This document shows, piece by piece, positions 4,700 through 29,216 of a DNA stretch of 42,816 nt (the first letter of the stretch is position 1; each line of letters starts with the position of its first letter). The DNA comes from a virus. Below the pieces are notes generated by a model that worked only from the letters and a program-made list of their open reading frames with translations, did no database searches and was not told the DNA's origin. The DNA lies in the IMG/VR virus record IMGVR_UViG_3300045988_147588, positions 1-42,816 of that record; one strand, written 5' to 3'. Both the position numbers and the translations under genes were made by a program.

Positions 4700-4816
4700 C
4701 TATATTTTACCATTATCTTTATTTTTTAAAACACGTTCTATTTCTTCAAGTCTTTTTTCAATATCATTCAGTCTTTTTAGAATTTCATTTAAAACAATAC
4801 TTTGTAATTCATCCAT
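4700..4816 (-). CDS. 38-aa coiled-coil peptide
   Basis: Hand translation: MDELQSIVLNEILKRLNDIEKRLEEIERVLKNKDNGKI. AGGAGG upstream. Tightly packed before the next ATG. Confidence 0.45.
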   Translation of the reverse strand: MDELQSIVLNEILKRLNDIEKRLEEIERVLKNKDNGKI

Positions 4817-5293: not shown

Positions 5294-6163
5294 TTATTTC
5301 TCAAAATCAGTAAATATACTAGTTTGTCCAAACCTATCAATACCATTAATTCTATTTGTTGCTATTTTCTGGTATTCTTCATTGATTTCAAATCCTATAA
5401 AATTTCTTCCTGTTTCTTTGCAAGCAACACAAGTTGTTCCACTTCCGCAAAATGCATCCAATACAATATCGTTTGGTTGCGTAGCATGAAGTATATGCTT
5501 TTCAACGAAATCCAACGGCTTAATTGTCGGATGTATGTATTTCTTTTTATCTTCAGTATTGGTAGAAGAAATATAATATGAGCGTTTTAAATCCATACCA
5601 TCATTCAATCTTCTTGCTCCTTTTTCTCTGAAGAAAAGACAATATTCTGTATCACTCAACCACGTATTGTTTGTTTTTGGAATCGGATTTGTTTTATGCC
5701 ACGTTAATATATTGAAGTTGCAGTCTTTCTTATTGCAGAAATAATCAATTGTATATGGAATCTGCGCTTTAGATAACCATATATATATGTATATTTCTTT
5801 TTCTACTCTGCAAAATTCATCATATATAGAATAATCAATTCCTGTATCAATACCCACAAGATTCTTTTTTTGCACAAGTCTGTTGCATTCTTGTTTATGC
5901 TTTTCCTTTTCGTATTCGCCAGTTGTTTCTTCATACAATTGTTTTTCTTTTTTAAATGCTATTTCTAAATTGTATTTTCTATTTCTAATTCCAAACGCAC
6001 CACCGTCACCAGCAGAAGCAAATTGATATGGAAGATCAACATAAATTAAATCAATGCTCTTGTCAGGTATATTCTTTATCAGTTCATAAGCATTTCCGCA
6101 TATAACTGTATTTAAATTTTCCTCAATAAAACTGCCCATTTTCTCCTTGAACATAAGAAGCAT
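5294..6163 (-). CDS. Beta-class N6A/N4C DNA methyltransferase (N6_N4_Mtase type)
   Basis: Motif IV-like VDLPY near the N-terminus. HPTIKP...VLDAFCGSGTT (motif I) near the C-terminus. Start may be an internal ATG. Confidence 0.8.
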   Translation of the reverse strand: MLLMFKEKMGSFIEENLNTVICGNAYELIKNIPDKSIDLIYVDLPYQFASAGDGGAFGIRNRKYNLEIAFKKEKQLYEETTGEYEKEKHKQECNRLVQKKNLVGIDTGIDYSIYDEFCRVEKEIYIYIWLSKAQIPYTIDYFCNKKDCNFNILTWHKTNPIPKTNNTWLSDTEYCLFFREKGARRLNDGMDLKRSYYISSTNTEDKKKYIHPTIKPLDFVEKHILHATQPNDIVLDAFCGSGTTCVACKETGRNFIGFEINEEYQKIATNRINGIDRFGQTSIFTDFEK

Positions 6164-6181: not shown

Positions 6182-6864
6182 TTAAATCAGATAAGTTTTT
6201 ATAAATCTTCTTGCATAGTCTTTTGAAATCATACTTCTTTGAACTTTTCTTGTTTTTCCATCTTCATCTTTGGCATATGAAATTCTTTTTTTTGGATGAA
6301 TAATCATTGGTTCATCCATAATAATATTTTCTTTAGGTTCAAAGTTAACAAAGAAGTATTGTGTAGATTTTTCATAGTAATCACCATTTTCATGCCTGTT
6401 TTTATCAATAACTTTAGGCTTTATGGCCCAGTACTTAATCAAGTAATGAGTTGATGAATATGGATTTTCTATGACTAAACGAAGCCCCCCCGTAAAGCTA
6501 CAATCGTGAGCATTGTTACAAATTCATACATATCATGCAGTTCCTTATGCATTTTCATATCTAACTGGAGCTTTTCTATATCATCATAATTTTTCATCTG
6601 GAAGGCAGTTCCTCTGAAATGCAGCTGAATTTGTTCTTCAAATCTAATGCAGGGAAAGAAAGCTAAAATCAAATCATCCTTTTTAATACTGTCGAATATT
6701 GAATCACGATAACAGTACGCCTTTTCTATTTCATCAAACAAATCAATCACATAATCTGTTTCACTGAAATCATTAGCAATATCATAATCGTATGCTTCAT
6801 ATCCAAGTTTTCTGAATTCATTTTTGAATGTTCCCGACTGTTCAAACATGCAATGAACTTTCAT
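6182..6864 (-). pseudogene. C5-cytosine-methyltransferase-like gene split by a G7 tract (ORFs 6475..6864 and 6182..6442)
   Basis: CMFEQSGTF (motif I-like) and FFPC (motif IV-like) in the upstream ORF. One extra G joins the ORFs and creates LVIENP (motif VI-like). The downstream ORF has a TTG start and no SD. Confidence 0.6.
6485..6491 (-). repeat. G7 homopolymer (C7 on the + strand) at the frameshift point
   Basis: Read directly. Unusual in this AT-rich genome. Confidence 0.95.
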
Positions 6865-7007
6865 ATTCTCTCCTTTAATCCATGCAACCGATGTATAGTT
6901 ATGTTGCATGGTTCTAATTTCGTAAAATCCAAGATAACCGTTTATTTATGCGGTTATCCTAGATTGTGCTTTTTTCTTGTGCAACATAATTTGATTTGTT
7001 GCAACGC
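6865..7007 (-). promoter_or_regulatory. Leader/regulatory module copy A (TGCAACA palindromes + terminator hairpin)
   Basis: Hairpins at 6980-7003 (TGCAACA/TGTTGCA), 6933-6958 (GATAACCG/CGGTTATC + T-run on the minus strand) and 6880-6911 (CATGCAAC/GTTGCATG). Homologous module at 11320-11465. Confidence 0.6.
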
Positions 7008-23531: not shown

Positions 23532-24959
23532 TCATCCCTCCATGATCTTCTTTATTTCATTTAATTTTTCGTTAGCTTTTTTTAGCTCCTCTTTTACTGC
23601 GTTCAGTTCTGCTTGAAGTTTATCGTATTCAGCTTTTGAAACGGTTTCTTCTGTTGGTTCTGTAGGTTTGCTAGGTTCTGTTGGTTCAGCAACCTTCATC
23701 TTTCCGATTGCTAATACGTTTGGAATATGACGACCTGTGTAAATGATTGATTGCCACTTGCTATCTGTAAACGCCATCATTTGAGTTGAACCACCACTGT
23801 CTACTAAGAATGCATAGTCAGCGTTACAATCTAACGCAAAGTTCTGCATTAGCTTTGGAAGTACTTTGCTAGCAGTACATACAATGCACCATGTATCTTT
23901 AATCTTCATAAACATGGTTTGACTGTTTGCGTAGTTGTCCTTATTGCCAAACGCTGATGAACGATGATTACAAGCTACATGATTAAATACAACTGTAGCG
24001 TATGGTGAACATGCGAAGTTCACATCCGCCTTAGAATACCAATAATCATTAGCGGTACATCTACCACACTCACCATTTTTCAATTCATAGAACACTTCAT
24101 AAGCACCGTTCTTAGGTGCTAGGTCATGTCCTGTAGTGTGTACATCATCACCGATACTTTGCTCAACACCGTAATGTTGACCATATTCTGATTTTGAAGC
24201 CATTTCAAAATAGTTACAATTTGCATCAGCCATGATTAATAAATTACTATGGTCGAATTTTCTAATATCTTGAGTAGCCTTTTCGTTTCCTAAAGCACTA
24301 AGCATGAATAATTTCTTGAATTTGTCATAGCCTTTATAGACTTTCAGATTTGCACCTGAATATGTCAAACTCTGGAATCCATCATTTAAATTCATAATTG
24401 CTTCATCTCCTTTGCATGTAATACCTGAGCAACTTTTCAATGTTGCTCCCTTTGTATTGAGTATTTTCGTAAAACTTGTGTCAACAAACATAACCTCAAG
24501 TGGATTTAATTCGTTGTATAAAGTCCACGTTCCATTTTTAGCCTTGTATCTTTTTCTAACATCGCCTTCAGCAATTTCTAGATGAATGTGATTGCCAGTA
24601 ACTTTACCTTCGTAAGGATATTTAGTTCCTTCTTGATACATCTTTTCATTGTGGTAAAGCCTACCAATTTTATGTTTATTCAAATCGTGTGTTAGCGATA
24701 CTGTTACCACTCTATCCACACCATCTGCACAATGTACCTTAGTAGGATTGCCTTTAGAATCGCATGACAGAAAATGATATGTATTAGTTGCACTACTCCA
24801 ACAACACGTACACTTCCAAAAAGTATCACCTCTGGCATACCAAATGTCTTTTCCTGTATCTCTACCGCCTAAATCAACCGCTTGATTTGCATGAGAATAA
24901 CTTCCACCTGGCAATTGAGTTATGTTTAAATATTCCATTCCAAAACACAAGTTATCCAT
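23532..24959 (-). CDS. Cell-wall hydrolase / lysin (475 aa), multi-domain
   Basis: GNHIHLEI (HxH, M23/LytM-like). FLVDSGGSTQM (phosphodiester-glycosidase/NAGPA-like). PTEPSKPTEPTEE linker and C-terminal coiled coil. Confidence 0.6.
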   Translation of the reverse strand: MDNLCFGMEYLNITQLPGGSYSHANQAVDLGGRDTGKDIWYARGDTFWKCTCCWSSATNTYHFLSCDSKGNPTKVHCADGVDRVVTVSLTHDLNKHKIGRLYHNEKMYQEGTKYPYEGKVTGNHIHLEIAEGDVRKRYKAKNGTWTLYNELNPLEVMFVDTSFTKILNTKGATLKSCSGITCKGDEAIMNLNDGFQSLTYSGANLKVYKGYDKFKKLFMLSALGNEKATQDIRKFDHSNLLIMADANCNYFEMASKSEYGQHYGVEQSIGDDVHTTGHDLAPKNGAYEVFYELKNGECGRCTANDYWYSKADVNFACSPYATVVFNHVACNHRSSAFGNKDNYANSQTMFMKIKDTWCIVCTASKVLPKLMQNFALDCNADYAFLVDSGGSTQMMAFTDSKWQSIIYTGRHIPNVLAIGKMKVAEPTEPSKPTEPTEETVSKAEYDKLQAELNAVKEELKKANEKLNEIKKIMEG

Positions 24960-25002
24960 GTTACCACCTCACTTTCATAATAAAAAGCCGTATTGCTACG
25001 AC

Positions 25003-25317
25003 TTATTCAAATTCAGCTTTAATAATATCTAATCCTGTTATACCAACAATAGACCACTTTACACCTTTTTTAGCTTGGTAAACTTTCATACCAGTTCCTG
25101 CTCCATAAGCTCCAGTATTATTCTTAACATCAAGAATACTTGTTAATCCGCTTGCTGTAATATTAACTTGCCATGTATTAATAGCAACTATGATGTAGCA
25201 GTCTTTTTCGGGTGTTTCAGTATAAGTTTTATTGTTGTCTCCATTAAAGGCTATCAAGGAAGTAAATTTCAATTTAGATACCCCCCCCGATTTCCGTACA
25301 ATTAAACAATTTCCCAT
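25003..25317 (-). CDS. Small tail-distal paralog 3 (104 aa) with G8 tract in codons 10-13
   Basis: MGNCLIVRKSGG N-terminus shared with the two upstream genes. AAAGGAG SD. Confidence 0.7.
   Translation of the reverse strand: MGNCLIVRKSGGVSKLKFTSLIAFNGDNNKTYTETPEKDCYIIVAINTWQVNITASGLTSILDVKNNTGAYGAGTGMKVYQAKKGVKWSIVGITGLDIIKAEFE
25281..25288 (-). repeat. G8 homopolymer inside the 5' end of 25003..25317
   Basis: Read directly: tcg ggg ggg gta. Confidence 0.95.
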
Positions 25318-25334
25318 CTTTTCTCCTTTGTTAT

Positions 25335-25676
25335 TTATAAAATTCCAATCAATATTATTGAACCTTGGTGTCCTGTTCTTCCTACATCAAATACAGTTCC
25401 TTTTGGAACATTTTCATAGTAATAATGATACCAAGAAAATATTTGCCCCCATGTATCGTTATACCCTGAGCTAATCTTTACAGCCTCGATACTAGGTGTT
25501 GTTGTAGTTTCCCATGAGCCACCATTTTGACCATTCAAAATAACATACACTCTTTTGTAATCTTTCTCTGTCGTTGCCTTTAACGTGGTTCCTTGAGAAT
25601 TACCGAATGTAACATATTTTGTAGCGATAATTTCGCTTCCACCGCCACCTTTTCTTGTTATCATGCAATTGCTCAT
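25335..25676 (-). CDS. Small tail-distal paralog 2 (113 aa)
   Basis: ATG at 25676 gives MSNCMITRKGGGG. Ends in ILIGIL. Confidence 0.7.
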   Translation of the reverse strand: MSNCMITRKGGGGSEIIATKYVTFGNSQGTTLKATTEKDYKRVYVILNGQNGGSWETTTTPSIEAVKISSGYNDTWGQIFSWYHYYYENVPKGTVFDVGRTGHQGSIILIGIL

Positions 25677-25725
25677 TCCAACACCTTCTTTCTGAAGATG
25701 TTTTTTAGGTAAGAAATACACTTAG

Positions 25726-26094
25726 TTATTCCCCCCCCGAGAGAATTCCGATGATTAGAACGTGCCCCCAACCGTTTGAAGCACCACTCCAAGAAATCGA
25801 ATGCCCTTTTTTAGCACTACCATATACATTAGTTCCTGTTACGTAATCGTTATCTTTACCAATACTGCCGTTATATCCCCAATCTCCTTTAGCTGCACTA
25901 GCTAATTCTTGCAATCCGTTTACATTGCATGAAGGTATTCCAGCTTGAGTTCTTTTCCCATCCACACTTCTTGTAACAACTATTGCCACATAGTCTTTTT
26001 GAAGAGTAATAGAACCACTGCCACCACTTTCTGCAAGCTTTTCTCCTGTCAATTTAGAAGAGCCGCCTTTTCTTGTAATTAAAGCATTTGCCAT
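25726..26094 (-). CDS. Small tail-distal paralog 1 (122 aa) with G8 tract in the last codons
   Basis: MANALITRKGGSS N-terminus. Ends in LIIGIL-SGGE, with SGGE encoded by the G8 tract. Confidence 0.7.
   Translation of the reverse strand: MANALITRKGGSSKLTGEKLAESGGSGSITLQKDYVAIVVTRSVDGKRTQAGIPSCNVNGLQELASAAKGDWGYNGSIGKDNDYVTGTNVYGSAKKGHSISWSGASNGWGHVLIIGILSGGE
25731..25738 (-). repeat. G8 homopolymer at the 3' end of 25726..26094
   Basis: Read directly: tcg ggg ggg gaa taa. Confidence 0.95.
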
Positions 26095-26100
26095 ATATAA

Positions 26101-26226
26101 CTATCCTTTTAATTCTTTTCCGTAAAGTTCTTTATATGCTTTTTTTGTTTCTTCAACATATCTTGTAGGAACATCATCTAAAGTTTTTTTGCCATTATGA
26201 ATGGCTCTTGCATATATTTTTCCCAT
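26101..26226 (-). CDS. XkdX-like 41-aa protein
   Basis: Hand translation: MGKIYARAIHNGKKTLDDVPTRYVEETKKAYKELYGKELKG. Size and position after the baseplate genes fit XkdX-type genes. Confidence 0.45.
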   Translation of the reverse strand: MGKIYARAIHNGKKTLDDVPTRYVEETKKAYKELYGKELKG

Positions 26227-26227
26227 A

Positions 26228-26545
26228 TTACACCTCTGCTAATTCCATTAATGCATCTGCATGTTCATTGAGTACTTCTGATACTTTTTCCTCAAAAGTT
26301 TTCATTCTGTTCTGAATAGTAACCTTTACAGTATCACCATCTTTTCTAGCGGAAATACCTTCTGGAATTACTTCAACATATTCAGTACCGTCTAATGTTA
26401 GTGTTTTCATATTTTCTACCGTTAGATTGTTTTTGATTGCATCCACTTCTTTAAAATTAGAAGTAGTCATTGTAATCAGCGTAATTGTAGATTCATCATC
26501 TACGTTAAATTTTGTTCCATCAGTGAATACTAATACTTTCATCAT
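26228..26545 (-). CDS. Hypothetical tail-module protein (105 aa)
   Basis: ORF track. Overlaps the upstream stop. Confidence 0.6.
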   Translation of the reverse strand: MMKVLVFTDGTKFNVDDESTITLITMTTSNFKEVDAIKNNLTVENMKTLTLDGTEYVEVIPEGISARKDGDTVKVTIQNRMKTFEEKVSEVLNEHADALMELAEV

Positions 26546-27246
26546 TTAACTCCTTTCACCAAAATAACAAAGTTTGAAGTAGGTTTATCTAAGCAGTACA
26601 AAGTCAATGTTTTTGTTTGTTCGTACAAATAAGCATATTTTAATGTTGCATATGCTTGTTCTTCTTCCTCAGTAGGAAGTGTTCCTGTAGCACCTATTTC
26701 AATAATTGGGTAACTGTCTATAATTTTGTTTACTGTTAAATCCTGGTAATAATAATCTCTTCCATCAATTGTTTTAGTACTAGAACTCCAACTTGATGCA
26801 GCCACATTAAATTTAGCTGTATTTGTACTACTTGGTATAGCTATGCTAAAAGCCATTGTAATTTTTTCTACTGCTAGATTCGTAGCGGTATATGTTGCAA
26901 TAATCATTTCGTATACTGAACCGTTAGTATTGATATCTTCTTTTGTTGGTGTATAACTACCTAAATAAGAAACAATACTGATAACATTTTCTGTAGCTAG
27001 ATCGTACTTCACTACAATATATCCGTTTGTTGTTTCAGATGATGGAAGTTTAACGGTTATGTCTTGCTCCTCGGTAACAAACTCTCTACCCATCATAATT
27101 CCATACATTGCTGGAATATGAACGAGTGCAGCACCTAATGAATTAATTGTTATTCCGTTAAACAAACCATCACTGAAAATCATGTTAAATAGCTTGCCAT
27201 CATCACTAGGAGAGACATTTTGTCCGTTTGCTCTAATTACTCTCAT
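26542..27246 (-). CDS. Baseplate / receptor-binding-module protein (234 aa)
   Basis: Position after the Dit and Gp37-like genes. N-terminus resembles BppU-type upper baseplate proteins by eye. Confidence 0.5.
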   Translation of the reverse strand: MRVIRANGQNVSPSDDGKLFNMIFSDGLFNGITINSLGAALVHIPAMYGIMMGREFVTEEQDITVKLPSSETTNGYIVVKYDLATENVISIVSYLGSYTPTKEDINTNGSVYEMIIATYTATNLAVEKITMAFSIAIPSSTNTAKFNVAASSWSSSTKTIDGRDYYYQDLTVNKIIDSYPIIEIGATGTLPTEEEEQAYATLKYAYLYEQTKTLTLYCLDKPTSNFVILVKGVK

Positions 27247-28399
27247 TGTTTGTAATCCTCCAATTTTCTCTGACGATTTGTGTTAATCGTGTTCTTGCCA
27301 TGCCAAAAGTAAGTACCATCGTTTTATCTGTTATTACTTCCTTACTAGTAAGCATTGTGTAGTATCTAGCATCATCTACTATAATTAGATATCTTGTGCC
27401 AATATCGCCAATATAAACTAACTTAGAATCCGTTTTGACTGTCAATTCTAACTCATCATCATAAGATGTTCTTTGCATTGAATCGAAAGCATCTTCTTTG
27501 CACACTTGCTCAAAAGATTTAGCTTCTTGTGTTACTACACCGTCTTTATCTTTCTTTTCTTCAACTGCCTTTTTCTTCTTAAACTTTTTAGAAACAGGCA
27601 ATAATCTTGGTGCTTTTGGTTCTTGATCTACATAACCGCTAAAACCATCTGGATGCCAATAAAATACAAGCATTGGTGTAAGGTTTGCTTTTTCCTCATC
27701 TGTTGCACCTTCTTTGTAATATTCACTATTTAAATAAACTATCTTATTAGGTTTCTTACTGTTAGATGTTTTCATCGAATAATCTAATACATCTGTTTCA
27801 CTTGTATCTATTACCCAAAATTCTTCAGTATCAACTAAGTGAATATCAATTTGAATAGTTTGTGTTTTAGGTACAAACTCCATATCAACAACTAATCCAT
27901 ATACTTTTAAAAACTCAACAGTTAAATCGTAAATGTTGTAAATATCATCATTTGCTACTTCAATATTTCCATTAGTACTTGAATGCTTTGTGATATTCAT
28001 TCCGATAATGTTTTGATAAGTATCGCCACTAGCAAAGATTGCTTTCATTTGTAACTCAAGCCAATCCTCTAACGTCATTTTGTTATCATTGACTTTAGCT
28101 ACCGAACCTAAATCACCATCAAAACAATCCATATCAAGTAATGACTGCAAAGGCAATAAAGTTACCGTTGTGTATGTTTTATCGAACGTATAATCATTTA
28201 TAACACCTTGATAAATTGCTTTTTCATCTAAAAACAAAGTGACTATATCGGTTCTTGATATATCCACTTTGCCTATTAGAGTTATTTTAGTTTTTTCTTG
28301 TGATATATAATCGTAGACAAGATTATCTACTTTTATTACTTCTTTATATTCTTTATATTCTAATGTTCTACTGAATACTGTTACACTATACCGTTTCAT
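27233..28399 (-). CDS. Tail/baseplate protein (Siphovirus Gp37-like, 388 aa)
   Basis: ATG at 28399 (MKRYSVTVF...) after GAGGAAG. Follows Dit. Confidence 0.6.
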   Translation of the reverse strand: MKRYSVTVFSRTLEYKEYKEVIKVDNLVYDYISQEKTKITLIGKVDISRTDIVTLFLDEKAIYQGVINDYTFDKTYTTVTLLPLQSLLDMDCFDGDLGSVAKVNDNKMTLEDWLELQMKAIFASGDTYQNIIGMNITKHSSTNGNIEVANDDIYNIYDLTVEFLKVYGLVVDMEFVPKTQTIQIDIHLVDTEEFWVIDTSETDVLDYSMKTSNSKKPNKIVYLNSEYYKEGATDEEKANLTPMLVFYWHPDGFSGYVDQEPKAPRLLPVSKKFKKKKAVEEKKDKDGVVTQEAKSFEQVCKEDAFDSMQRTSYDDELELTVKTDSKLVYIGDIGTRYLIIVDDARYYTMLTSKEVITDKTMVLTFGMARTRLTQIVRENWRITNNESN

Positions 28400-29216
28400 A
28401 GACTTCCTCAATTTCTAAAATTGCATTAATTTTATTTCCTGATGTTTCAGTAACTCTAAGCATTGATTCACCTGTAGGAATTACAATAAAAGCTTTATTG
28501 TCAAAATCTATTTTCTGATATAAGTTTTGATACAGCGTATCATCAAGCGTATATTCAGCGATTTCTCTTTCGTTGTCATTAGAATTAATAATCAGTTTGT
28601 GGTTCGACGGTATTTCTACATTCAAACCATTCTTGATCAGCGTTTTTCCATTTTGAGATAAAACCCAATTTGGATTAACGCAGTTTCCAAATAAAGTTAA
28701 TATGCTCGGACATTCTTCTGTACCTTCATTGATAATTCTAAATTCACCACTTGCTGTTTCAACATAAGTATAACCATATGAATAGTTATACTTCTTTATA
28801 TTAGTTGAATCTTCTGTGGCAGTCATTGCTCTTCTAGGAATATACCATTTACTTAATGCAGTAAAATCAATCGCACATGTCAGTAAGCTTGTAGAAGAAC
28901 TAATCTCGCTTTTATCAAGTCGTGTAACAGTACATTTCAGATATGCCCATTCATCTAAAGGTTTATAAGCTAGTTTCAAAGGTTTATATGAGATAAACTT
29001 TGTAAACTCTTTATATTGCTTGTACCCTTTAAAAATCATCTCTCCTGTTACAGCTTTTTGTGATGATTTTTCTTCTGTAATTTCATAGACAGTTCCAATA
29101 TTTGCATATGAATTATCCATTGAAAAACCTAAGCCATCTGGAGAGTTAAAAAAAGCATCTAGGCGCATGAGATTAAACTCTGCGCCTGTGCTATTAATTA
29201 ATTTGAACTGCCTCAT
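28386..29216 (-). CDS. Distal tail protein (Dit)
   Basis: MRQFKLINSTGAEFNLMRL...SPDGLGF N-terminus is typical of Sipho_tail proteins. Lies immediately after the tape measure gene. Confidence 0.75.
   Translation of the reverse strand: MRQFKLINSTGAEFNLMRLDAFFNSPDGLGFSMDNSYANIGTVYEITEEKSSQKAVTGEMIFKGYKQYKEFTKFISYKPLKLAYKPLDEWAYLKCTVTRLDKSEISSSTSLLTCAIDFTALSKWYIPRRAMTATEDSTNIKKYNYSYGYTYVETASGEFRIINEGTEECPSILTLFGNCVNPNWVLSQNGKTLIKNGLNVEIPSNHKLIINSNDNEREIAEYTLDDTLYQNLYQKIDFDNKAFIVIPTGESMLRVTETSGNKINAILEIEEVYETV

Follow-up and report, generated by a model that had tools for sequence, protein, structure and literature searches.

Introduction

What do two runs of eight guanines do in a cluster of three small genes of a phage genome in which GGG is the rarest glycine codon? 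We have addressed this question for the IMG/VR virus record IMGVR_UViG_3300045988_147588, which was analysed over its full length (positions 1 to 42,816; hereafter, the window). The window is a phage-like genome of 42.8 kb with 33% GC, and encodes TerL, an integrase, a tape-measure protein, Dit, tail proteins, a Dp-1-type holin, and a putative lysin. We take it to be a temperate siphophage whose host is probably one of the gut Bacillota with low GC. The minus strand carries three tandem paralogs, in the order p3, p2, and p1, that separate the tail genes from the putative lysin gene, and p3 and p1 each contain one G8 run. We consider that these runs are hypermutable contingency loci in a three-gene cassette of adhesin-like paralogs in the distal tail operon, and we estimate the probability of this reading at about 0.7.

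G tracts of the cassette and their frame consequences

The two tracts appear as C8 on the plus strand, which corresponds to G8 on the minus (coding) strand, at 25281-25288 (tract A, in p1) and at 25731-25738 (tract B, in p3), exactly where an initial annotation of this DNA had placed them. The sole further G or C run of at least 7 in the window is a C7 at 6485-6491. The annotation had argued that all runs of at least 7 G are found on the coding strand, and that this is very unlikely by chance. The plus strand indeed has no run of at least 6 G, and two C runs of at least 8 are observed where 0.05 (independent, identically distributed bases) or 0.03 (first-order Markov model) would be expected in a window of 33% GC. 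In terms of codon usage, GGG accounts for 26 of the 557 Gly codons in the window (4.7%), and only two of its 36 Gly-Gly dipeptides are written as GGG-GGG, both of which are the G8 tracts. The three paralogs have a common N-terminus, M-x-N-C/A-L/M-I-T/V-R-K-(G/S)-G-G (family motif MxNxLIxRKGG). In the N-termini of p2 and p3, mixed codons are used for the equivalent Gly-Gly motif, and accordingly the Gly run of p2 (ggt ggc ggt gga) forms no slippery tract.

The p1 gene (25003-25317, minus strand), the third paralog, encodes 104 amino acids (aa) in the G8 state, and its homologs P0004 and P0005 also have 104 aa. Tract A (25281-25288, minus strand) occupies codons 10-13 of p1 (aaa tcg ggg ggg gta). 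In our simulation of tract lengths, G8 or G11 gave the full-length protein, G7 gave ..SGGYLN*, and G9 gave ..SGGGI*. Thus, G7, G9, or G10 in tract A ends the translation of p1 after 14-16 codons, and the simulation reproduced the truncation at about 16 aa that had been claimed for a slip in this tract.

The p3 gene (25726-26094, minus strand), the first paralog, starts with the motif MANALITRKGG and encodes 122 aa in the G8 state, and its homologs have 118-140 aa. Tract B (25731-25738, minus strand) is located in the last p3 codons (tcg ggg ggg gaa taa), and its length sets the C-terminal frame. On simulation, G8 ended in ..SGGE* and G7 in ..SGGNN*, while G9 or G6 led to ..SGG(G)ITKCISYLKNIFRKKVLE* and a protein of 140 or 139 aa. 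This alternative-frame extension, (G)ITKCISYLKNIFRKKVLE, is located at 25673-25730 on the minus strand and is open for G6, G9, and G12 only. The TGA of the long frame (25673-25675) overlaps the ATG (25674-25676) of p2, the second paralog (25335-25676, minus strand; MSNCMITRKGGGG..., 113 aa), in the form of ATGA. The overlap with the next paralog that had been predicted for G9 is therefore present, and the predicted extension of about 22 aa is slightly imprecise, as the long form is 18 aa longer than the G8 product.

Tract length among related loci

We fetched 28 loci from metagenomes and metagenome-assembled genomes (MAGs), of which 27 contain the cassette or a tract (loci are given L numbers and homologous proteins P numbers). 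Over the 27 related loci, both tracts are conserved in position and range from G6 to G10 in length. Contig pairs from different samples are 100% identical over 1-3 kb and differ at the tracts only. L005 and L012 share 2333 nucleotides (nt) with 0 mismatches and one indel, which is tract B, with G8 (long, ATGA) in the former and G9 (short) in the latter. L009 and L010 share 2976 nt with 0 mismatches and two indels, one per tract (G9 vs G8; G8 vs G10). Likewise, L008 differs from L009, L010, and L011 at the tracts only, and the pair of L008 and L009 shows both states of tract B, long and short, on an identical background.

The N-terminal tract is in frame in WIN/L014 (WIN being the window and L014 a contig identical to it, from ERZ1749067), L005-L009, L012, L013, and L016, and is out of frame in about half of the loci (L001, L002, L003, L004, L010, L011, L015, L019, L022, and L024). 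In p1, the OFF alleles are G7 in L001, G9 in L002, L015, and L022, and G10 in L010 and L011. These alleles keep the downstream open reading frame (ORF) intact and have no second lesion, and the proteins P0019 and P0024 are N-truncated gene calls from such out-of-frame p1 alleles. The ON/OFF switch that had been claimed for p1 is thus supported by relatives with frame-breaking G7, G9, and G10 alleles in front of an intact p1 ORF. The C-terminal tract is in the long state in L001, L005, L007, L008, and L015-L018, and also in L010 and L011 (G8, same flanks), and in the short state in WIN/L014, L004, L006, L009, L012, L019-L023, and L025. Considering that the tracts are conserved in position, polymorphic in length, and written in rare GGG codons, and that all three tracts of the window differ from those of close relatives, the claim of contingency loci is supported. 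As far as natural alleles are concerned, these contigs show the switch to be real, and we infer that switching also takes place within a clone.

Homopolymer miscalls in sequencing or assembly could mimic such G7-G10 differences, in which case the true tracts would be fixed and in frame. On the one hand, several contigs have a low coverage of 4-9x, poly-G is error-prone on some platforms, assemblers struggle with such runs (L003 breaks exactly at a G10 run), and the shared regions have no A/T run of at least 8 that could serve as a control. On the other hand, non-reference alleles recur across samples and assemblers (L016/L017/L018, L019/L020, L010/L011, L006/L012, and L005/L007). As identical alleles occur in independent samples (G8 in L016-L018, G7 in L019/L020, and G10 in L010/L011), we regard them as alleles and not as random homopolymer miscalls. 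Moreover, the differences include +2 steps, the Illumina consensus error at G8 is low, both alleles give sensible and conserved protein ends, and the tracts are found on SPAdes, MEGAHIT, and Logan contigs alike. An artefact of this kind is highly improbable.

It could also be considered that Gly-Gly codons simply happen to be G-rich, so that the tracts form a mutational hot spot without adaptive switching and the OFF alleles represent decaying accessory genes. The share of out-of-frame N-terminal tracts, about half, would agree with such decay, as would the interrupted tract G6TG4 of L022 and L023 and the cassette content, which is very variable between phages. However, the rare GGG-GGG is kept at the same two positions across lineages at 85% identity or less, and the tracts are kept in non-homologous cassette bodies too (the 138-aa gene of L005, and L003, L024, and L025). 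The OFF alleles are free of second lesions, and the tract co-occurs with a dedicated hairpin and the ATGA architecture. We therefore consider a hot spot without switching to be decidedly unlikely.

Two further observations concern tracts of this kind in the related contigs. The contig of L003 ends exactly in its G10 run (4740-4749), at the 3' end of a cassette gene with G10 at its 5' end too. Assemblies seem to break at tracts, and accordingly such loci may be under-sampled in metagenomes. In L008, a further G7 tract (657-663) is located at the 3' end of a 114-aa tail-module gene, and a change of this G7 to G6 or G9 would fuse the 114-aa gene with the next 96-aa ORF. The counterparts of this pair in L001 (272-874) are one 200-aa gene. 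Read from these two contigs, the L008 tract is another tract-controlled split-or-fuse junction.

A predicted hairpin masking the start of p2

The p3-p2 junction is predicted to fold into an RNA hairpin, AACAUCUUC-AGAAA-GAAGGUGUU (25680-25702, minus strand), whose 3' arm holds the Shine-Dalgarno sequence (SD) of p2. The distance from its end to the p2 AUG is 3 nt in the window and 0-3 nt across lineages. The hairpin of the window folds with a free energy (dG) of -9.9 kcal/mol (z -4.4), and homologous hairpins in four other lineages have 12-13 bp with dG of -13.5 to -16.3 (z -3.8 to -5.8). Over nine lineages, 93.9% of the cells are paired, compared with 40-67% in slid controls, and the hairpin shows covariation, with two pairs having compensatory double changes and five one-sided changes leading to another standard pair. 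The distant MAG locus L025 keeps the hairpin with an A-U to G-C change (pairing by hand). On folding, no comparable structure was found at the p2-p1, upstream-p3, and p1-lysin junctions. In L003, a p3 homolog has no tract at its junction, and the SD of the next gene is free. Thus, the hairpin co-occurs with the tract, and the tract-free junctions (p2 to p1, and L003) have a free SD. A Rfam scan of the cassette gave nothing meaningful. An intrinsic terminator was considered as another reading of the hairpin, and was rejected on the grounds that the hairpin lacks a following U-run and extends to the p2 start.

The extension frame of tract B is open in every lineage, and each of the two other frames stops within 1-3 codons. 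The long p3 form is a called protein in the relatives (P0008, P0009, L005, L007, L008, and L015-L018). The ATGA overlap is likewise present in L005, L007, L008, and L015-L018, and L021 has a TAG 1 nt before the ATG. The p3-like homologs end in ..GIL*, ..SGGD*, ..SGGGD*, ..SGGGTN*, ..SGGGN*, or a tail of 18-22 aa (..SGGVLTKLLTLIANIFRKEVLA*). In the window, the short-frame stops are 17-23 nt upstream of the stem, and accordingly a terminating ribosome would not reach the hairpin. The initial annotation had claimed a switch of translational coupling at tract B. This claim is supported by the presence of both states on identical backgrounds, and the conserved SD-masking hairpin is added to it here. 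The sequences and the folding models fit a role of tract B as a switch for ribosome read-through of the SD-masking hairpin, that is, a phase-variable translational coupling of p2.

In the mechanism that we propose, slipped-strand mispairing during DNA replication would lead to heritable changes in tract length. Tract A would set full-length p1 to ON (G8 or G11) or OFF (G7, G9, or G10). Tract B would pick one of three frames, two of which stop within 1-3 codons. In these short frames, the ribosome would be released 17-23 nt before the hairpin that buries the p2 SD, while in the third frame it would translate about 18-20 further codons through the hairpin and stop at the ATGA overlap with the p2 start. 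By the same slip, p3 would gain a Gly-linked amphipathic C-terminal helix, and the translation of p2 would be turned up by coupling. Together, the two tracts would lead to a mixed phage population, in which particles or infections differ in their set of the three paralogs.

The two p3 products could also arise by recoding instead of mutation, if the G run acts as a site of programmed ribosomal frameshifting or of transcriptional slippage. In this case, both p3 forms, short and long, and some full-length p1 would be made at a fixed ratio by every genome, comparable to the tail-assembly chaperone G/GT. A tRNA-Gly on eight G re-pairs perfectly in any frame, a conserved hairpin is located downstream, the long-frame peptide is open in all lineages, and RNA-level slippage on G8-G10 could act on top of DNA changes. 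However, recoding sites are normally conserved, whereas the tract length is not fixed, ranging from G6 to G10 and differing among otherwise identical genomes, and the window hairpin starts 28 nt past the tract, compared with 5-9 nt for known -1 stimulators. From this variable length and this distance, programmed frameshifting is disfavoured. In addition, the 3' arm of the hairpin is the p2 SD, and two of the three frames of p1 end within 14-16 codons with no alternative product. Accordingly, we consider recoding to be unlikely.

Beyond switching by tract length, a speculative and less probable reading is that the tracts form a phase-variable translational switchboard, in which each tract would steer ribosomes to stops set on restart or fusion points. 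One such point would be the ATGA at the p2 start behind the SD-masking hairpin, another would be an in-frame fusion as in L025, and in p1 it would be codon 16, reached as TTGA or TAA-a-TTG, for which the G run would serve as SD. Codon 16 of p1 is an in-frame TTG (25270-25272, minus strand), 8 nt past tract A. The OFF-frame stops of p1 abut this codon, as a TTGA overlap for G7 and G10 and as TAA-a-TTG for G9, and gene callers started P0019 (MKFTSL..., 89 aa) from this TTG in the OFF-state contig L002. Hypothetically, the codon-16 TTG could be a restart codon leading to an 89-aa p1 without the N-terminal motif. If the switchboard is true, it would generate combinatorial adhesin isoforms that differ in the presence of the N-terminal docking motif and of the C-terminal helix and in having single or double heads, and would be more than a simple ON/OFF switch.

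In L025 (5211-5989; GTDB MAG contig CAVCUC010000070.1), the observed tract is G7, and with G8 the junction would be translated in frame, joining two cassette proteins in one product of 259 aa. In this locus, a G6 run forms the SD of the second gene.

Proteins of the cassette

The AlphaFold2 (AF2) model of p3 is an all-beta sandwich with a mean predicted local distance difference test score (pLDDT) of 79 and a predicted template modelling score (pTM) of 0.74, and its N-terminal motif is disordered. In the PDB, its best TM-score was 0.51, with the receptor-binding head BppL of Tuc2009, which is a weak match (E 0.14). Further weak Foldseek matches were carbohydrate-binding modules (CBMs) and viral P domains. 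The extension of p3 was modelled with low confidence as an amphipathic helix after the SGG linker, and the amphipathic pattern in the upstream half of the tail is kept despite nucleotide divergence. P0029 (59 aa, Logan contig) is a p3 homolog in which an internal deletion joins ..AESGGGGS to NGWGH.., with the SGG tract and the long-frame tail retained downstream of the deletion. It could be the result of a deletion between Gly-rich repeats or an assembly artefact.

Relatives of the cassette are few. The cassette DNA had no match among GenBank phages in blastn (distant mode), and neither p3 nor an L003-type cassette protein had one in tblastn against GenBank phages. No relatives of the p3 or p1 families were found in IMG/VR and no p3 relatives in GTDB genomes, and the JGI metagenomes contained one related locus. 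When 1.84 billion proteins were searched exhaustively with a profile, only 13 cluster representatives matched, indicating that the family is rare. The p2 protein itself is present on 2 contigs, and its near-identical homolog P0002 is present on 15 contigs.

Cassette members elsewhere have different bodies behind the same N-terminal motif and tract positions, such as the 138-aa protein in L005 and the proteins with a ..GTWIDGKPIYRK.. motif in L003 and L024. A 158-aa member in L019 passes the Pfam threshold for F5_F8_type_C (30.3 bits vs 28.2), whereas p1-p3 themselves show no F5_F8_type_C match above threshold. Interchangeable heads on a common N-terminal docking peptide would be the most economical reading. 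Some p3-body homologs (P0020-P0025) have a longer N-terminus, MAKGILIHNGSAIEGNATPNDVLSGKTF..TGTL, in place of MxNxLITRKGG, which suggests exchangeable N-terminal adaptor modules. Two other readings of the N-terminus were dropped. A double-glycine bacteriocin leader was considered for MxNxLIxRKGG, which has only about 12 residues and lacks the leader consensus; no transporter or peptidase was seen near the cassette, for which no dedicated search was made. A lipoprotein or signal peptide was considered as well, and no hydrophobic segment or lipobox was found.

The cassette is located downstream of the tape-measure protein, Dit, and two tail proteins in the window, and is always found in the tail-fibre module. 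In L005 and L016, it is relocated together with a virion structural protein of 314-322 aa. Judged by its distribution, the cassette behaves as a mobile accessory module with a putative role in host range. A role in adsorption or host range is plausible on circumstantial grounds, which are the tail-module position, the beta-sandwich fold, and the F5/8 type C domain in one relative. In such a role, the proteins would be incorporated into the virion and would bind receptors. In L005 (847-2078) and L016 (1742-2988), the cassette stands after the lysin-holin genes and not before them, and it is also accompanied there by a protein of 91-94 aa that is helix-turn-helix-like by eye.

On the other hand, the switch may be real while the proteins are not virion adhesins but moron-like products of the lysogen or of lysis, which would diversify lysogen phenotypes. 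In the window, the cassette has the lysin and holin genes as neighbours, while in L005 and L016 these genes precede it and it is located near the prophage end. A terminator-like hairpin separates the cassette from the lysin gene, and the proteins match no known family. However, by inspection they have no N-terminal signal peptide or membrane segment. In the window, only short gaps separate the cassette from the tail genes that precede it. The coding strand has no promoter-like site immediately before p3, and in total such sites are no commoner than in shuffled sequence. Furthermore, the cassette moves together with a gene for a virion structural or fibre-like protein, a discoidin domain is present in one of its members, and the fold weakly resembles a receptor-binding protein (RBP) head or a CBM. 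Moron-like products are thus a rather unlikely explanation, and we prefer adhesin-like proteins under the control of contingency loci.

Several points weigh against the contingency-locus reading, in addition to the low coverage and the poly-G errors described above. Differences between samples show the mutability of the tracts, and not the rate or reversibility of switching. The lineage of the window is known only in short states (G8, G8, and G10), and its long state is taken from other lineages. GAAGGUG is a decent SD for p2, and in the lineage of the window the 9-bp hairpin (-9.9 kcal/mol) may lower p2 initiation without shutting it off. The sequence ..NIFRKEVLA of the p3 tail is encoded by the hairpin and the SD, and accordingly its conservation is not independent proof of a functional tail. 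In L025, the long frame fuses two cassette genes and has no ATGA stop, indicating that coupling is not the sole outcome selected. Finally, p1-p3 have no family match in Pfam, PHROGs, or NCBIfam, and Foldseek found no match with E below 1e-3 in the PDB and BFVD, for which reason we claim no fold family.

Neighbouring genes and a third tract

The upstream tail module that precedes the cassette (26101-29216, minus strand) was assigned by Pfam and PHROG matches. It contains Dit (28386-29216, minus strand; Pfam Dit_N at 7e-30), a 392-aa tail protein (27233-28411, minus strand), and a 234-aa tail protein (26542-27246, minus strand), with matches to the tail proteins phrog_7064 and phrog_6779. Between the 234-aa tail protein and the cassette, the minus strand encodes ORFs of 105 aa and 41 aa. 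On the other side, the terminator-like hairpin and its T-run (24985-25004, minus strand) are located between the cassette and the putative lysin gene, and the hairpin begins 1 base inside the p1 stop codon (25003-25005). The protein encoded at 23532-24959 (minus strand; 475 aa) is in the endolysin position, upstream of the Dp-1-type holin. It is called a putative lysin from this position, and no Pfam catalytic domain backs the call. Its sole Pfam match is a sub-threshold Phage_scaffold at residues 436-471, and an HxH-type motif, GNHIHLE, was noted by eye. Positional homologs of this protein in L015 and L021 carry Amidase_2. Its relatives, with 66-73% identity, are found in three gut MAGs only (labelled Lachnospiraceae, Bulleidia, and one unclassified bacterium). 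No tRNA genes were found in the window.

The third tract is a G7 in an early-region gene (6485-6491, minus strand). The window allele is frameshifted and leaves a 144-aa ORF (6475-6909). G8 at this tract restores a conserved 227-aa protein, the ORF remnant extending to about 6182. P0038 is intact and 99% identical to the restored protein, whose family comprises more than 2500 homologs of 220-240 aa. The relatives L027 and L028 carry G8 at this tract and an intact gene. The protein has no sequence match in Pfam, NCBIfam, or the PDB. On visual inspection, its FxxxG, FPC, and ENP motifs recall those of C5 DNA methyltransferases, and the gene (6182-6909) is located just upstream of an N6_N4 DNA methylase gene (5294-6163). 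From these sequence features, the third tract may be part of a phase-variable modification gene.

Comparison with known systems

To date, only a handful of phage systems are documented to have contingency loci, namely the RBPs of Campylobacter Fletchervirus and recently the T-even phages. The present locus would add temperate phages of human-gut Bacillota to this list, with both switch states circulating in nature and visible from metagenomes alone. In the mechanism that it suggests, one gene ends in a hypermutable tract, which would decide whether ribosomes open a hairpin masking the ribosome-binding site of the next gene. If the small paralogs are tail-tip adhesins, they would represent a compact bet-hedging device for host range. 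Systematic searches for such devices would be possible, as would their use in engineering phages whose tropism can be switched.

Phase variation by homopolymeric tracts in Campylobacter, Neisseria, Haemophilus, and Helicobacter represents the bacterial contingency loci. The tracts described here are similar to these loci and to those of T2/T4 in being repeats in ORFs, and would share with them reversible frameshifts by polymerase slippage and a bet-hedging logic. Contingency loci were reported in T2/T4 in a recent preprint (Gomez, Barrick and Waters 2025, PMC12633550). In coliphage tail-fibre genes, homopolymers of at least 6 bases are under-represented (PMC12633550), whereas here homopolymers are concentrated in the tail-distal cassette. 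Other host-range diversifiers are the inversion of the Mu G-segment and the P1 C-segment and the diversity-generating retroelement of Bordetella BPP-1 (cited in PMC10579305). As would be the case here, these systems give alternative tail-tip proteins within one phage lineage, but they use site-specific inversion or reverse-transcriptase mutagenesis in contrast to the repeat slippage proposed here, and no invertase or reverse transcriptase turned up near the cassette in general ORF and family scans.

In terms of structure, the model of p3 weakly resembles BppL of Tuc2009/TP901-1 (PDB 5e7t and 5e7f; TM 0.46-0.51) as a small beta-sandwich head in a distal siphophage baseplate module. However, the Foldseek E is 0.14-0.2 at 18-20% identity, there is no sequence homology, and p3 has no shoulder and neck domains.

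Coupling through an SD-sequestering hairpin and an ATGA overlap is classic in bacterial operons and RNA phages. As in these systems, the hairpin described here occludes the downstream SD, the upstream ribosome would read through it, and the stop overlaps the start. To our knowledge, translational coupling is constitutive in known cases, whereas here the arrival of the ribosome at the hairpin would depend on the length of a hypermutable tract. We found no description in the open-access literature of coupling made phase-variable by a 3'-terminal tract, and the term 'translational coupling' has 0 occurrences in the searched part of the text of PMC12633550.

The closest comparison is provided by the RBP genes of Campylobacter Fletchervirus, whose poly-G tracts have a length of 7-11 G (Sorensen et al., Cell Rep 2021, as cited in PMC12633550, PMC10579305, and PMC10877375). 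Both cases have intragenic G runs in tail or RBP genes of an AT-rich phage genome, where length changes switch expression and make subpopulations; for the present locus, this would follow from the mechanism proposed above. Fletchervirus is a lytic Campylobacter myophage, while the window is a temperate siphophage-like element of gut Bacillota, and its cassette consists of tandem mini-proteins of 100-140 aa with a shared N-terminal motif, known from sequence alone. One tract of the window is located at the 3' end of a gene together with an SD-masking hairpin and ATGA, and would act on the next gene. Relative to the poly-G loci of Campylobacter phages, the present locus would thus differ in that translational coupling itself is phase-variable.

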